Source of the DNA: a virus
Taxonomy: Duplodnaviria > Heunggongvirae > Uroviricota > Caudoviricetes
Reading direction: 5' to 3' (one strand)
DNA: 5,359 bases
Virus record (IMG/VR): IMGVR_UViG_2529292725_000015
Numbering within the stretch: position 1 is the stretch's first letter; every line of letters starts with the position of its first letter. The translations under genes were made by a program, and so were the position numbers. Below the pieces are notes generated by a model. The model was not told the DNA's origin, searched no databases, and saw only the letters and a list, made by a program, of their open reading frames with translations. Below, piece by piece: positions 1 through 5,359 of the stretch.

Positions 1-555
1 TCATTTATCTCCGACCGGAAACTTCTTATACAAAGTCGATACGCCAACATCATAAATGATCGCCACCTTCTGGCGAGGAACTCCTGATGCAATTAGTCGC
101 CCGGCCTGCGCCCATTGTTCTGGTGTAAGTTTGGGACGACGTCCACCAATTCGTCCCTGTGCGCGAGCAGCTTCCAGTCCAGCTTTTGTTCGTTCAACAA
201 TCAGTTCTCGTTCCATTTCAGCCAGGGCACCCATCACATGAAAGAAAAAACGCCCCATCGGTGTGCTGGTATCAATTGAATCCGTCAGACTACGAAAGTT
301 AATGCCTCGTTCGCGCAACCCCTCCACCAGCACGACAAGATGCCGCATACTGCGCCCCAGTCGGTCCAGCTTCCAGACAACCAGAGTGTCACCTGCCGAT
401 AATGTCCTAAGCAGTTTTTTCAGTCCCGGCCTTTCGGACTTTGTGCCGCTTATCTTGTCTTCAAAAATCAGCTCGCATCCTGCACAGTTCAGCGCATTAC
501 GTTGTAGATCTGTGTTCTGGTCATTTGTTGATACGCGTACATAGCCAATAAGCAT
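1..555 (-). CDS. pin: Serine-recombinase DNA invertase, Gin/Pin/Cin/Hin family (184 aa from the ATG at 553-555; the 196-aa ORF reaching 591 is probably a 5' over-extension)
   Basis: Translation MLIGYVRVSTNDQNTDLQRNAL...GRIGGRRPKLTPEQWAQAGRLIASGVPRQKVAIIYDVGVSTLYKKF has the small-serine-recombinase N-terminus with the catalytic Ser in the YVRVST motif (codon at 529-531) and a C-terminal HTH domain; the length is typical for Gin/Pin. A GGGGGA Shine-Dalgarno-like motif lies ~9 nt upstream of the ATG at 555. Stop TGA is at 1-3 (minus). The gene sits next to an invertible tail-fibre segment. Confidence 0.93.
   Translation of the reverse strand: MLIGYVRVSTNDQNTDLQRNALNCAGCELIFEDKISGTKSERPGLKKLLRTLSAGDTLVVWKLDRLGRSMRHLVVLVEGLRERGINFRSLTDSIDTSTPMGRFFFHVMGALAEMERELIVERTKAGLEAARAQGRIGGRRPKLTPEQWAQAGRLIASGVPRQKVAIIYDVGVSTLYKKFPVGDK
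425..500. promoter_or_regulatory. Predicted Fis-dependent recombinational enhancer inside the 5' part of the invertase gene (position inferred by analogy, not identified by motif)
   Basis: In the Gin, Hin and Cin systems the enhancer lies inside the first ~150 bp of the invertase coding sequence. The coordinates here are placed by analogy only; I could not confidently pick Fis sites by eye. Confidence 0.25.
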
Positions 556-581: not shown

Positions 582-1160
582 ATGATGCCATTTGCTCGTT
601 ATTTCTGCATTTTCATAAACGTTGGTTTGGGAGAAGGTTCGGCATTACCCGTTGGCGTGCCTGTTCCGTGGCCTTCCGCCACTCCGCCAACAGGCTGGCT
701 GAAATGCAACGGTGCCGCTTTTTCTGCTGAAGAATACCCGGAACTGGCAAAGGCTTATCCGACAAATAAATTGCCTGATTTACGTGGTGAGTTTATTCGT
801 GGCTGGGATGACGGGCGTGGTGTGGATGCGGGACGTGCCTTGCTAAGTCTTCAGGATGACTCTTTTGAAGCGCACAGGCATGAGTCCTTTTTTTACGCGG
901 GTATTTCTCGCAATGAAATACCATTAAAAAATCTTCCAAGTTCAGACGAGATGCTGACTTTAAGTTCTACAACTAATGCCTTGTCCCCGGACGGTATTGA
1001 TGCCACTAATTCGTTAATTGGTAATGATGATTACAACTGTCTGATTGAAGGAAATAAAAATAACAAACGAACAGCGACGGGGTTGAGTACCAGTATTGTC
1101 GGTGCAGCAGAGACACGCCCACGTAATATTTCATTTAATTACATTGTGAGGGCTGCATGA
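582..1160 (+). CDS. Silent alternative tail-fibre C-terminal cassette (Sv'-like). The ORF runs 582..1160, but the functional reading frame starts at the crossover (codon at 624) and would be fused to the constant fibre N-terminus only after inversion
   Basis: Translation ...GLGEGSALPVGVPVPWPSATPPTGWLKCNGAAFSAEEYPELAKAYPTNKLPDLRGEFIRGWDDGRGVDAGR... carries the conserved C-terminal motif of Mu/P1/e14-type tail fibres. The ORF is in frame with the crossover core, and no convincing independent start context is evident. Confidence 0.8.
   Translation: MMPFARYFCIFINVGLGEGSALPVGVPVPWPSATPPTGWLKCNGAAFSAEEYPELAKAYPTNKLPDLRGEFIRGWDDGRGVDAGRALLSLQDDSFEAHRHESFFYAGISRNEIPLKNLPSSDEMLTLSSTTNALSPDGIDATNSLIGNDDYNCLIEGNKNNKRTATGLSTSIVGAAETRPRNISFNYIVRAA
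610..635. repeat. 26-bp inversion crossover site (gix/pix/hix-like), invertase-proximal; read on the minus strand as TTCTCCCAAACC-AA-CGTTTATGAAAA
   Basis: Dyad-symmetric site with an AACC..GGTT-type core arrangement. It matches the site at 2535..2560 at 21 of 26 positions when compared in inverted orientation, including an identical 14-bp interior half plus core. The 2-bp core is AA on the minus strand (plus 622-623 = tt). Confidence 0.8.
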
Positions 1161-1762
1161 TGTATAACGCCATCTTGAATAGTAAATTTATTGCCACAAA
1201 GGCAGGAGAGATTACCGTTTATAACTATGACAGTGAGACACGGGAGGATATTTCTGCATCAACTGAATATCTTGCTGTGGGTGTCGGTATCCCTGCATAT
1301 TCCTGTTTAGATGCTCCTGGCACACATAAGGCTGGTTATGCAATCTGCCGTTCGGCAGATTTAAACTCATGGGAATATGTGTCAGACCATCGCGGTGAAA
1401 TCATCTATAGCACCGAAACAGGAGAATCGAAAGAAATCACAGCTCCGGGTGATTATCCTGAAAATACAACCACTATCGCCCCGTTAACGCCATACGATGA
1501 ATGGGATGGTGAGAAATGGGTAACAGATACTGTGGCACAGCATAGCGCCGCAGTAGGCGCGGCAGAAGCACAGCGTCAGTCACTGATTGATACTGCAATG
1601 GCTTCCATTAGTCTGATTCAGCTGAAATTGCAGGCCGGACGGAATCTGACGCAGGCAGAAACCGCCCGACTTAACGCTGCGCTGGATTACATTGACGCGG
1701 TGACGGCAACAGATACCAGCACCGCGCCGGATGTCATCTGGCCTGAACTGCCGGAGGCGTAG
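1157..1762 (+). CDS. Tail-fibre assembly protein (Tfa / Mu U-like), cognate of the silent cassette
   Basis: 201-aa product with a Tfa-like C-terminus (...LDYIDAVTATDTSTAPDVIWPELPEA). Its start overlaps the upstream stop as ATGA (1157-1160), and GAGGG lies ~5 nt upstream. It sits directly downstream of the variable fibre cassette, as in the G and P segments. Confidence 0.85.
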   Translation: MMYNAILNSKFIATKAGEITVYNYDSETREDISASTEYLAVGVGIPAYSCLDAPGTHKAGYAICRSADLNSWEYVSDHRGEIIYSTETGESKEITAPGDYPENTTTIAPLTPYDEWDGEKWVTDTVAQHSAAVGAAEAQRQSLIDTAMASISLIQLKLQAGRNLTQAETARLNAALDYIDAVTATDTSTAPDVIWPELPEA

Positions 1763-2174
1763 GCCATTCAATATCTGGCGCACCGGAAGTATCGACCAGT
1801 TCCAGTGCGTCCAGATAATCCAGCCACAAATTATATTGCGCCAGTTCCTCCCCTTTCAGCCGGCCAATAGCCGCTTTACCAGGCCATTGTTTACTGTTCA
1901 TATAATCGTTGGCCTGATTAATCAGTTGCTGCTTTTCCAGTTCGGCTGCAGCAATCTGTTCCTCATGTGTTGGTGGTGGAATTTCAGACCATGCAGGAAA
2001 ACCATTTTCTCCAGCGATACGGATTTTTCCTTTCGGCGGTAATCCGGAAAACTCAATATACACTTGCTCATCAACTTCAACAGCATCATCTGGCCATGAG
2101 TCAGCTTGAGTGTAATCCTCTTTCATCTCCAGCGGATAGAAAGAGTTTGTAGTCGCGGAATATATGTAATTCAT
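1734..2174 (-). CDS. Tail-fibre assembly protein (Tfa), cognate of the currently expressed fibre C-terminus
   Basis: 146-aa product ending ...NLWLDYLDALELVDTSGAPDIEWPTPPAVQAR, the same C-terminal Tfa signature as the plus-strand tfa. GGAG lies ~8 nt upstream of the ATG at 2172-2174. It follows the fibre gene stop (2196-2198) by 21 nt. Confidence 0.85.
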   Translation of the reverse strand: MNYIYSATTNSFYPLEMKEDYTQADSWPDDAVEVDEQVYIEFSGLPPKGKIRIAGENGFPAWSEIPPPTHEEQIAAAELEKQQLINQANDYMNSKQWPGKAAIGRLKGEELAQYNLWLDYLDALELVDTSGAPDIEWPTPPAVQAR

Positions 2175-2195: not shown

Positions 2196-2885
2196 TTAAC
2201 AGCCTAACGCTAAAAATGAAGCGCCGAGGCCAGGAGTACTGGCTCTGGATATAAATTTAACCGGGTCGGGACTAAAACCTGCACAGGCAATATAACCAAC
2301 AGCCCCGCTATCTGGTGTGTAGTCTTGTGAGACCAAAACACGCAGACATCTGTTTGGAAATGCAATCGGGAAATGGGTTACTACATCCTGTGCAATGCCT
2401 GGTGCGCCGATTGAGCCCCACTGAAGAATAAAACCTGATGGTAATTTTTGATATCCAGTACCTGAAACAGAAAGCGTGAAGCTACCCATATCAGGTATCT
2501 GATTCGCCCCTGTCCCTACATTCCTTTTAGCCGCTTCTCCCAAACCAAGGTTTTCGAGAGCCGTTTTCACCGTGCCATCCGATTTGATATCACCAAACGG
2601 ATTCTTGCGGCTCAGGTATTCAACAGCAAACCCCGATCCCAGCAATTCAACAAAACCGGGCAGATCACCATTATCAAGCACATCCCGTTGCGTTTTGTCA
2701 CTTACAAACTGGGCCAGAGCTGCAGCAATAAAGCTGGCCTGCCGAATAACCTTATTGACTTGCGCACTGGATGCTTTCCCTGCTGTAAATCCGGATAAAA
2801 GCGCAGGCAACGCTTCCCATTCCTCCTGCGACATAACATTGGCATTCCGATCAGTTGCAAACGCTTTAAAGTCATTTTTCGCCAT
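2196..2885 (-). CDS. Tail-fibre protein in the currently expressed configuration: constant N-terminal part (2885 down to ~2549) fused through the crossover site to variable C-terminal part (2546 down to 2196); 229 aa
   Basis: The ORF is continuous through the crossover site 2535..2560, which encodes ALENLGLGE. The ATG at 2883-2885 overlaps the stop of the upstream gene (ATGA), which favours MAKNDFKAF... as the true start over the upstream MGSITL start in the ORF track. GGGGAG lies upstream. Confidence 0.85.
2535..2560. repeat. 26-bp inversion crossover site (gix/pix/hix-like), invertase-distal; plus strand TTCTCCCAAACC-AA-GGTTTTCGAGAG
   Basis: Internal dyad symmetry (9 of 12 between half-sites). 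Core AA at 2547-2548 is inverted relative to the site at 610..635. The site lies inside the tail-fibre coding sequence at the constant/variable junction. Confidence 0.8.
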
Positions 2886-3565
2886 CAGAGTAATACTCCC
2901 CATGCCCCTACATCAAAACCACTGATGAATTCGTTATCCATATCAAAACCAAAAAATTTTGAACCTTCCGATGGAGTTTCCACCGAAGGTGTTTCAATGC
3001 CACCCGCCCAAACCCCGGCGGCTTTTACTGTGAGATATCCCTGTTTAATTGCAGCAATTAACTCACGCGATACATCTGAAATATCAGTATCAGGAAAGAG
3101 CCAGACCGATATCGTCATGTCCTGGTTATCGACTATCTGCATTCGCAGTCCGGATCCTGCTGTCGCCGCGTCAAGAATTGCTGGAAGCGAATCATTCCGT
3201 CCGTCCCAGTTATTAATCGCAATCTTCGCTTTAAGGATGACACGATAAGTTTCATCGCTGAGGTACATGTATCCGGAATCAGGATCGTATGGCCCCTGCC
3301 ATACACCCTGATCATATCCAAGCCCGTCGGTATCCCAGCTGAAATAGACACCTGAGATAGGCTGGCTGACAACACGGCTACGTCCGATCCACAATCCAAG
3401 AATGTCAAGTTGCACACCAACCGCAGAGTCAATATCAAATGCAGTAATCAGCCCTCTGGTGGCAGCCGCAACATCAATAAGCGGCCGGGTCATCAGATCA
3501 ACATGTGCAAGAAATTTAGGTTTGGTGGCGTGGTAGTTCGTGATCAGTTCGGTGTATTTGCTCAT
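2885..3565 (-). CDS. Phage tail/baseplate-associated protein (226 aa), the gene immediately upstream of the tail fibre; family assignment uncertain (position is consistent with Mu gp48 / e14 YmfQ-like proteins)
   Basis: Long ORF on the same strand as the fibre gene. Its stop overlaps the fibre start (ATGA at 2883-2887) and its start overlaps the stop of the upstream ORF (ATGA at 3562-3565), i.e. an operon with translational coupling. GGTGGAG lies upstream of the ATG. Confidence 0.7.
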
Positions 3566-3864
3566 GACTCCACCGTTATAACGATATTTTCCGGTGTACA
3601 GGACGCAGATTCGTTGTATCTGATATCAATGTTTGATGACGACAAAGCCCCCGGGGATTTCCCAATCGTCAGTTCCTGAATATCGTAATAGCGTGCATTC
3701 CCGCCACTCACCACGCCAAGATTCGCCGGTGAGTAAATGCGACTTAAAAGGACCGAATCACCAATCATCAGACTATTGATATAGTCGGAAATAGCCTGCT
3801 GGATCTGCTGCCCTATCTGTGAGGTATAACCCGTAAAAACTTTTAATTTAATCCGGGCATAAAC
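3562..3864 (-). pseudogene. 3' remnant (~100 codons) of an upstream tail/baseplate gene, apparently truncated at its 5' side by the IS66-family insertion
   Basis: The minus-strand frame ending at TGA 3562-3564 stays open upstream of the only ATG (3766-3768), through the IS boundary at ~3865, as far as an in-frame stop at 3997-3999 inside IS DNA. The product C-terminus is protein-like and translationally coupled to the next gene, so the 68-aa ORF in the track is more likely the tail of a disrupted larger gene than a small protein. Confidence 0.5.
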
Positions 3865-3890
3865 GTAAGCGTACAGCCTGAACCGTCTGG
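3865..3890. repeat. Putative left terminal inverted repeat of the IS66-family element (extent approximate)
   Basis: GTAAGCGTACAGCCTGAACCGTCTGG begins with the GTAAGCG motif characteristic of IS66-family termini. The right end is outside the window, so the repeat cannot be confirmed by pairing. Confidence 0.45.
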
Positions 3891-3956
3891 TCAGAATCTG
3901 ACGAATTAGACAAAGTGGTGTCCACCAAATAAGTAGTGGGAACCAAAGTGTCAGAT

Positions 3957-4337
3957 ATGCAGAAAAATGTGACTCCCGGCAGGCGAAAAGGCAGCCCTAA
4001 TTATCCTCCCGAATTTAAACAGCAGCTCGTTGCTGCCTCCTGTGAACCCGGGATATCCATCTCAAAACTTGCTCTTGAAAATGGCATTAACGCCAATCTG
4101 TTGTTCAAATGGCGACAACAATGGCGCGAGGGAAAGCTGCTATTACCTTCTTCAGAGAGCCCCCAGCTACTTCCTGTGACTCTCGATGCAGCTGCCGAAC
4201 AGCCAGAATCGCTCGCAGAGGACCCGAAAACCCTCAGTATCAGCTGTGAGGTAACGTTCCGGCACGGGACGCTCCGCTTCAATGGCAATGTCAGCGAAAA
4301 GCTCCTGACTCTGCTGATACAGGAACTGAAGCGATGA
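3957..4337 (+). CDS. tnpA: IS66-family OrfA (TnpA-like small HTH protein); an alternative GTG start lies at 3936
   Basis: Translation MQKNVTPGRRKGSPNYPPEFKQQLVAASCEPGISISKLALENGINANLLFKWRQQW is an IS3/IS66-type HTH transposase-accessory N-terminus. Its stop overlaps the next start as ATGA (4334-4337). Confidence 0.8.
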   Translation: MQKNVTPGRRKGSPNYPPEFKQQLVAASCEPGISISKLALENGINANLLFKWRQQWREGKLLLPSSESPQLLPVTLDAAAEQPESLAEDPKTLSISCEVTFRHGTLRFNGNVSEKLLTLLIQELKR

Positions 4338-4681
4338 TCCCGTTACCTTCCGGGACCAAAATTTGGCTGGTTGCCGGTATCACCGATATGAGAAATGGCT
4401 TCAACGGCCTAGCGGCAAAGGTGCAGACGACGCTGAAAGACGATCCGATGTCAGGTCACGTTTTTATCTTCCGTGGGCGTAATGGCAGTCAGGTAAAGCT
4501 CCTCTGGTCTACCGGCGATGGACTGTGTCTGCTGACCAAACGGCTGGAGCGCGGCCGCTTCGCCTGGCCGTCAGCCCGGGATGGCAAAGTGTTCCTCACA
4601 CCGGCACAGCTGGCGATGCTCCTTGAAGGTATCGACTGGCGGCAGCCTAAAAGACTGCTTACGTCCCTGACTATGTTGTAA
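4334..4681 (+). CDS. tnpB: IS66-family OrfB (TnpB-like accessory protein)
   Basis: 115-aa product MIPLPSGTKIWLVAGITDMRNGFNGLAAKVQ...LWSTGDGLCLLTKRLERGRFAWP... matches the conserved IS66 Orf2 pattern and is translationally coupled to orfA. Confidence 0.85.
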   Translation: MIPLPSGTKIWLVAGITDMRNGFNGLAAKVQTTLKDDPMSGHVFIFRGRNGSQVKLLWSTGDGLCLLTKRLERGRFAWPSARDGKVFLTPAQLAMLLEGIDWRQPKRLLTSLTML

Positions 4682-4729
4682 GCCTCTTTATCCTGGTCGA
4701 CGCTGAATGAGCCTGGTAATATACCCGGT

Positions 4730-5359
4730 ATGAGCAGCTCACTTCCTGACGGTATCAATGCGCTGAAACGTCTCCTTGCCGAACAGGAGGCGCTGAACCG
4801 TGCCCTGCTGGAAAAGCTGAACGAGCGTGAACGCGAAATAGACCATCTGCAGGCACAGCTGGATAAGCTGCGCCGGATGAACTTCGGCAGCCGCTCCGAA
4901 AAAGTCTCCCGTCGTATCGCACAGATGGAAGCTGACCTGAAGGCACTTCAGAAAGAAAGTGATACCCTTACCGGTCGGGTTGACGACCCGGCCGTGCAGC
5001 GCCCGCTGCGTCAAACCCGCACCCGCAAACCGTTCCCCGAATCACTCCCCCGCGATGAAAAACGGCTGCTGCCGGCAGCGTCATGCTGCCCGGAATGTGG
5101 AGGCTCACTGAGCTATCTGGGTGAGGATGCCGCCGAACAGCTGGAGTTGATGCGCAGCGTCTTCCGGGTTATCCGGACTGTACGTGAAAAGCATGCCTGT
5201 ACTCAGTGCGATGCCATCGTGCAGGCCCCCGCGCCTTCACGGCCCATCGAGCGGGGTATCGCAGGACCGGGGCTGCTGGCCCGCGTGCTGATCTCAAAGT
5301 ATGCAGAGCACACCCCGCTGTACCGCCAGTCTGAAATGTACGGCCGCCAGGGCGTGGAG
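4730..5359 (+). CDS. tnpC: IS66-family transposase (TnpC), N-terminal 210 codons; 3' end beyond the window. Not in the supplied ORF track because no stop lies within the window
   Basis: Open frame from the ATG at 4730-4732 to the window end, translating MSSSLPDGINALKRLLAEQEALNRALLEKLNERE...LPAASCCPECGGSLSYLGEDAAEQLELMRSVFRVIRTVREKHACTQCDAIVQAP... (coiled-coil/leucine-zipper-like N-terminus followed by a zinc-finger-like CxxC...CxxC motif, as in IS66 transposases). Confidence 0.85.
   Translation, partial: MSSSLPDGINALKRLLAEQEALNRALLEKLNEREREIDHLQAQLDKLRRMNFGSRSEKVSRRIAQMEADLKALQKESDTLTGRVDDPAVQRPLRQTRTRKPFPESLPRDEKRLLPAASCCPECGGSLSYLGEDAAEQLELMRSVFRVIRTVREKHACTQCDAIVQAPAPSRPIERGIAGPGLLARVLISKYAEHTPLYRQSEMYGRQGVE

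Follow-up and report, generated by a model that had tools for sequence, protein, structure and literature searches.

The stretch of DNA analysed here (5359 nucleotides of a tailed-virus record, hereafter the window) ends inside an insertion sequence (IS), and a short open reading frame (ORF) of 68 amino acids (aa) lies beside the terminus of this element. The question raised by this locus is whether the ORF is a small gene of its own or what is left of a larger tail gene. The sequence-only reading favoured the second answer. It held that an IS66-family element with its terminus at GTAAGCG (position 3865) had probably disrupted a baseplate or tail gene upstream of the fibre genes, that the in-frame sequence preceding the only ATG was still protein-like, and that the 5' portion of the gene lay beyond the far end of the IS. 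The coordinates given for the reading frame are all confirmed: the minus-strand frame that ends at 3562 has a stop at 3997–3999, and all 145 codons between it and the next stop, at 3562–3564, are open. The sole ATG, GTG or TTG codon in this frame is the ATG at 3766–3768, which yields the 68-aa ORF, with no other canonical start upstream in frame.

The minus strand of the window, read from right to left, is the end of a phage late operon. The features of both strands are the following.

1–555, minus strand: pin-type serine invertase
582–1762, plus strand: alternative fibre C-terminus with its assembly gene
1734–2174, minus strand (late operon): fibre-assembly gene
2196–2885, minus strand (late operon): short tail-fibre gene
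2885–3565, minus strand: baseplate wedge gene DUF2612/Phage_Wedge1, 226 aa (Pfam PF11041, E = 9e-47)
3562–3864, minus strand: orphaned 3' end of a gene assigned to the baseplate J/gp47 (wedge-2) family, 100% identical to ETEC-2264 CJU63_RS14935 up to 3864
3562–3768, minus strand: 68-aa ORF as reported by gene callers, starting at the internal Met332 of J
3857–3864, no strand: left copy of the 8-bp target-site duplication GCATAAAC, also found outside the IS right end
3865–5359, plus strand: left 1495 bp of the 2441-bp ISEc22 (IS66 family), cut by the end of the window
3865–3886, plus strand: left terminal inverted repeat of ISEc22, GTAAGCGTACAGCCTGAACCGT, identical in 19 of its 22 bases to the reverse-complemented right end GTAAGCGTGCAGCAAGAACCGT
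3957–4337, plus strand: ISEc22 tnpA, 126 aa, HTH_Tnp_1 (PF01527, E = 1.4e-12), annotated as tnpA in an identical copy
4334–4681, plus strand: ISEc22 tnpB, 115 aa, IS66 Orf2-like (PF05717, E = 1.6e-38), named after the annotation of an identical copy
4730–5359, plus strand: 5' part of ISEc22 tnpC, which codes for the DDE transposase (512 aa in full) and continues past the end of the window

Between 3865 and 3996 the frame passes through 44 stop-free codons of IS DNA. The chance expectation of such a run is about 12 per cent, and this part of the open frame has no meaning. The part between 3769 and 3864 encodes residues 300–331 of an intact J protein of 399 residues, and the description of this sequence as protein-like was therefore correct.

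Window positions 3400–3864 are matched in 335 of 5426 complete E. coli genomes, and in 333 of these with at least 80 per cent query coverage. In all 30 listed matches the DNA belongs to a gene for a 'baseplate J/gp47 family protein' followed by a DUF2612 gene, the latter being named 'baseplate wedge 1 family protein' in one of the 30 records. As to whether homologues end naturally as proteins of about 68 residues, they do not: the sequence is uninterrupted in the 333 complete genomes and codes for 399 aa in ETEC-2264. The allele of ETEC-2264 (CJU63_RS14935; 1200 nt, uninterrupted) matches with 100 per cent identity. Compared base by base, the window is identical to it through position 3864 and unrelated from 3865, where GTAAGCG starts, so that the proposed IS terminus coincides with the first base that departs from the uninterrupted allele. 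Some megablast matches start 5–15 bases before 3865; this reflects a ranking by coverage, which favours chance extension, and the boundary is fixed at 3864/3865. The window keeps 101 codons of the gene, that is, residues 300–399 and the stop, and their translation is the intact C-terminus.

The intact protein passes the Pfam model PF04865 (Baseplate_J) with 55.7 bits against a gathering cut-off of 21.1, over residues 85–342. Searches with phmmer against solved wedge proteins retrieved gp88 of 9zd7 (1e-31), wedge protein 2 of 9ndy (1e-24), gp16 of 7kh1 (1e-16), E217 gp44 of 8env (8e-7) and gp47 of 9ki1 (2e-3). The alignment with solved wedge proteins (9zd7 gp88, and also wedge-2 proteins of the phiTE, E217 and Mu type) reaches residue 396. 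On four contigs carrying the region, the gene order is Sheath_initiator (117 aa), J, Phage_Wedge1/DUF2612, fibre and assembly protein. From its sequence and its neighbours, the disrupted gene is identified as a member of the baseplate J/gp47 (wedge-2) family of simple myovirus baseplates, to which Mu gp47, E217 gp44, Pam3 gp22 and phiTE wedge 2 belong. P2 gpJ and T4 gp6 are also of the J/gp47 wedge-2 type. The gene studied here differs from known wedge-2 proteins in being split at residue 302/303, with the C-terminal 97 residues unattached and probably not made. The disrupted gene is thus indeed a baseplate gene, located directly upstream of the DUF2612 wedge gene, which is followed by the fibre and assembly genes.

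The DNA from 3865 to 5359 is 100 per cent identical over its 1495 bp to copies whose transposase is named 'IS66-like element ISEc22 family transposase' in RefSeq, two of these copies being carried by a plasmid of ETEC-2264; the attribution to the IS66 family thus stands. A reference copy (NZ_CP023350.1, 2501–4941) measures 2441 bp, from GTAAGCG to CGCTTAC. Three consecutive genes, tnpA, tnpB and tnpC, are present, as is usual in the IS66 family. The window contains the first 210 codons of tnpC, which on two other contigs is complete and codes for 512 aa with the domains LZ_Tnp_IS66, zf-IS66 and DDE_Tnp_IS66. Han et al. reportedly described in 2001 that the imperfect terminal inverted repeats of this family begin with GTAAGCG. 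Elements of the IS66 family carry three genes, tnpABC, and generate 8-bp target duplications (PMC6778807). By sequence identity, the inserted DNA is ISEc22, of the IS66 family. The element itself shows no difference from ISEc22; only its insertion site is particular to this lineage. Its GTAAGCG terminus contains TAA (3865–3871, mirrored at the right end on a contig that carries it), and a gene that enters either end of ISEc22 in the matching frame stops at once; here this gives a clean product of 302 aa, without any tail encoded by the IS.

On the assumption of a simple insertion, its far side was predicted by continuing the ETEC-2264 gene up to a copy of 3857–3864 and then into the reversed right end of the IS. 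The predicted frame, ...GTT TAT GC/G TAA (the slash marks the IS boundary), encodes J residues 1–302 with a TAA stop provided by the IS terminus. Exactly this 302-aa protein exists, deposited as a 'hypothetical protein', in E. coli 2872800 and 2875000. The 68-aa ORF is present in the same strains as the 302-aa product (2872800 is named in detail), and the records of E. coli 2872800 and DEC12D list it as a 'putative bacteriophage domain protein'. A lookup of the exact 68-aa product gave seven draft E. coli assemblies with an identical left junction, and each of these seven contigs ends inside the IS. The window itself is the end of one contig, AQDB01000092.1 (GCA_000354275.2), over 5359 of 5359 bases.

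Six contigs (L013–L016, L018 and L019) hold the far junction, which reads ...GGTTCTTGCTGCACGCTTAC, then GCATAAAC, then AGGTACATCACTGG... Closest to the breakpoint the letters are CGCTTAC, GCATAAAC, AGGTACATC...: the IS finishes with its right end, 3857–3864 is repeated, and the sequence then goes on exactly as in the empty site. ETEC-2264 has a single copy of the octamer GCATAAAC at its empty site; in the IS-bearing strains a second copy lies directly outside the IS right end. The 8-bp duplication which the sequence-only reading had suggested looking for is therefore found, and beyond it the same ORF continues, as had been foreseen for the missing 5' portion, with residues 1–302 on contigs of sibling assemblies. 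J residues 300–302 (VYA) are encoded at both junctions because of this duplication. Upstream of the 302-aa gene, these contigs carry the genes for a terminator, sheath, tube, chaperone, tape measure, hub and spike proteins and the sheath initiator; on its 3' side there is the IS66 transposase, on the opposite strand. Two of the right-junction assemblies come from Logan and represent separate sequencing runs, ERR217374 and SRR446711. Both junctions occur within a single assembly in GCA_000354455.1 (contigs L011 and L013) and in GCA_000354935.2 (contigs L007 and L015). The IS segment on L013 covers positions 683–2441 of the element, 100 per cent identical to the reference, and overlaps positions 1–1495 present in the window. 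No single contig crosses the whole element; from these overlapping identical IS segments and the matching duplication, we infer that the two halves are continuous across the IS.

No record spanning the junction was found by megablast in the 5426 complete E. coli genomes. The 34-bp left junction had no exact match in a contig collection that holds one genome per species, a result that consequently carries little weight. Two further matches to the 302-aa product (L017 and L020) were rejected: they are contigs of the uninterrupted allele that end by coincidence 1–2 bases past codon 302, and not insertions.

Taken together, it is highly probable that a single complete copy of ISEc22 splits the J gene of an otherwise intact E. 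coli prophage, with a defective prophage tail as the inferred consequence. According to this explanation, the 2441-bp element transposed into codon 302/303 of the 399-aa J/gp47 gene by a simple insertion, duplicating the 8-bp target GCATAAAC and deleting nothing. The 5' part now encodes residues 1–302, closed by the TAA of the IS terminus (GC/G TAA), and the 97 codons of the 3' part are without a start codon until Met332. A wedge protein truncated in this way, lacking its conserved C-terminal part, would give no baseplates and hence no infectious virions, and 2.4 kb of antisense IS DNA would stand between the late operon and the wedge and fibre genes downstream.

Other explanations of the same data have to be weighed against this one. 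If the 68-aa ORF were a genuine small gene, the IS would merely lie in the intergenic DNA upstream of it, and several genomes do have this ORF annotated and deposited as a protein. However, it starts at the internal Met332 of J, has no Shine–Dalgarno-like sequence upstream and no Pfam match, and the same DNA is uninterrupted in the 333 complete genomes, being located, among the listed matches, inside the J/gp47 gene (399 aa in ETEC-2264); moreover, the genomes without the IS in which this ORF is called have 1-bp frameshifts in the 399-aa gene. The small-gene reading is refuted by the intact homologues and keeps only a negligible probability. The 68-aa ORF is an artefact of gene calling on the orphaned 3' end of J, a by-product of the truncation, reported because the 97 orphaned codons have no start codon before Met332.

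An assembly chimera might be suspected from the position of the left junction, close to the end of a contig that terminates inside a multicopy repeat, but this junction was assembled independently in seven assemblies and the right junction in at least six contigs, including two Logan assemblies. The precise target-site duplication in all junction assemblies also argues against a chimera, which we regard as extremely improbable. A complex rearrangement would place the two halves of J elsewhere than 2.4 kb apart, either because two ISEc22 copies bracket other DNA or because recombination between IS copies has inverted half of the prophage or carried it to another place. Every short-read contig breaks off within the IS, and these genomes contain several ISEc22 copies, which makes recombination between copies conceivable. 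Nevertheless, a perfect 8-bp direct duplication at both ends, together with an empty site that has lost nothing, is the signature of a single simple transposition, whereas the flanks left by recombination between different IS copies normally do not match, a pattern reported for IS66 (PMC6778807), and an inversion with another copy would not produce the matched left and right ends observed. We consider such a rearrangement very unlikely. One simple transposition without deletion is preferred because the 8-bp repeat is matched and the sequence beyond it continues the empty site without change.

The likely effect of this insertion can be judged from the role of the protein family. In Mu, Pam3, E217, Milano and phiTE, the baseplate is built from six wedges, each with two copies of wedge-2 in two conformations; the N-terminal helices of wedge-2 form the core bundle with a second wedge protein, the remainder forms the trifurcation unit, and the inner wedge-2 copy 'shakes hands' with the outer copy of the neighbouring wedge, joining adjacent wedges (PMC11915804, PMC11972413). 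The break at 302/303 falls inside the Pfam Baseplate_J domain (85–342), and the 97 lost residues align with the solved homologues. Since the break lies within this domain, the conserved C-terminus is lost and the family belongs to the baseplate core, J has likely lost its function and the tail module is likely defective. The prediction is that this prophage makes no infectious particles.

It could also be imagined that the insertion has been kept by the lineage, either because a prophage that can be induced, lyses the cell and flips its fibres without infectious tails benefits the host, or because the 302-aa fragment, alone or with the 68-aa peptide, still assembles a working or altered baseplate. 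The insertion persists across many isolates and sequencing runs, and nothing points to selection; we find this idea highly unlikely.

The insertion might also affect the genes downstream. The DUF2612 wedge gene is intact and has its own ribosome-binding site (GGTGGAG), and the IS has put 2.4 kb of antisense DNA between it and the upstream late genes. Overlapping stop and start codons are observed on the minus strand between J and the wedge gene (ATGA, 3562–3565) and between the wedge and fibre genes (TGATG, 2883–2887); such overlaps between successive genes are typical of translational coupling. As the 3' end of J is probably no longer translated, expression of the wedge gene may be reduced through this coupling. 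Q-modified late transcripts might read through the IS, and a polar effect on the fibre genes is uncertain. A scan of positions 3400–4400 found no sigma-70-like promoter on either strand, so that nothing indicates transcription of the orphaned 3' end or of the wedge gene from an outward promoter of the IS; the same scan found one terminator-like hairpin (minus strand, 4037–4021), which is no more than expected by chance.

The prophage of ETEC-2264, with the empty site, is about 40 kb long and integrated between yfhH and yfhL. It encodes an integrase, a repressor, DNA polymerase, primase, the Q antiterminator, lysis, terminase and head proteins, a contractile tail, baseplate, fibres and pin. It is a SEN34-like temperate myovirus, similar in size (about 40 kb) and gene content to SEN34 and the vB_EcoM phages. 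The same baseplate and fibre module, with J uninterrupted, is found in Escherichia phages vB_EcoM-606R2, 689R2, 611R5 and 683R1 (98 per cent DNA identity) and in Salmonella phage SEN34 (75 per cent).

The IS-bearing strains are probably Bangladeshi isolates of enterotoxigenic E. coli (ETEC), as the ETEC-2264 record suggests in part. In the tail genes upstream of the insertion they are 99.97 per cent identical to ETEC-2264 over 10.8 kb, with three differing bases and no gaps. The insertion looks recent, within one ETEC lineage, because the flanks and the IS are identical or nearly so and the sister strain has both the empty site and an identical ISEc22 on a plasmid. This plasmid, NZ_CP023350.1, is the virulence plasmid of ETEC-2264; two ISEc22 copies 100 per cent identical to that of the window (2501–4941, and from 5326 onwards) adjoin its CS7 fimbrial genes, and the chromosomal insertion could plausibly have originated from a related plasmid.

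The existence of a near-identical strain with the empty site makes the insertion a clean and recent marker for this ETEC lineage. The event is of a known kind, a known IS disrupting a known type of prophage gene, and raises no new biological question. Its practical consequence concerns annotation: the deposited 68-aa 'putative bacteriophage domain protein' and 302-aa 'hypothetical protein' are one pseudogene and should be marked as such, and predictors of prophage completeness would probably overcall this prophage as intact.

The window also contains a Pin-type invertible segment (617–2553), bounded by 20-bp inverted repeats at 617–636 (AAACGTTGGTTTGGGAGAAG) and 2534–2553 (CTTCTCCCAAACCAAGGTTT), within which lie two alternative fibre C-termini, both accompanied by an assembly gene of their own. 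Among the IS-bearing siblings the segment has the orientation of the window in L004, L006 and L009 and the inverted one in L005, L007 and L010; it is also inverted, relative to the window, in ETEC-2264. As both orientations occur among IS-bearing siblings, the invertase still flips the fibre segment in spite of the broken baseplate gene. Invertible fibre segments of the Pin/Gin type are known from e14 (Pin), Mu (Gin) and P1 (Cin), including defective E. coli prophages. Like these systems, the present one combines a pin-type serine recombinase with an adjacent invertible segment of alternative fibre C-termini and assembly genes. Unlike defective prophages of the e14 type, it belongs to a different prophage family and owes its defect to a single recent IS insertion rather than to extensive decay. 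On one contig (AQDC01000084.1 of GCA_000354455.1, 3469–4794) the invertible segment runs into the constant fibre and wedge sequence a second time, in inverted form. The culture probably contained both orientations, which would have produced this join as an artefact of assembly.

Split or truncated forms of this module are also seen elsewhere. The 68-aa ORF is called in two unrelated genomes without the IS, E. coli DEC12D (790–1990 of the contig) and GCA_046575725.1 (9009–10207 of the contig), where 1-bp indels near codons 310–325 divide the 399-aa J into about 330 and 68 aa. These frameshifts may be independent pseudogenizations or sequencing errors; the DEC12D prophage occupies a different chromosomal site, near rsmF and pqiA, and the contig of GCA_046575725.1 contains many split genes. 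Finally, the metagenome scaffold ERZ28662589 carries a prophage remnant (5957–6871) in which the 3' end of J (window 3379–3791) is joined directly to upstream neck genes and the wedge gene has an internal deletion (window 3038–3378 missing). Here the same module has decayed in another way, by deletion.
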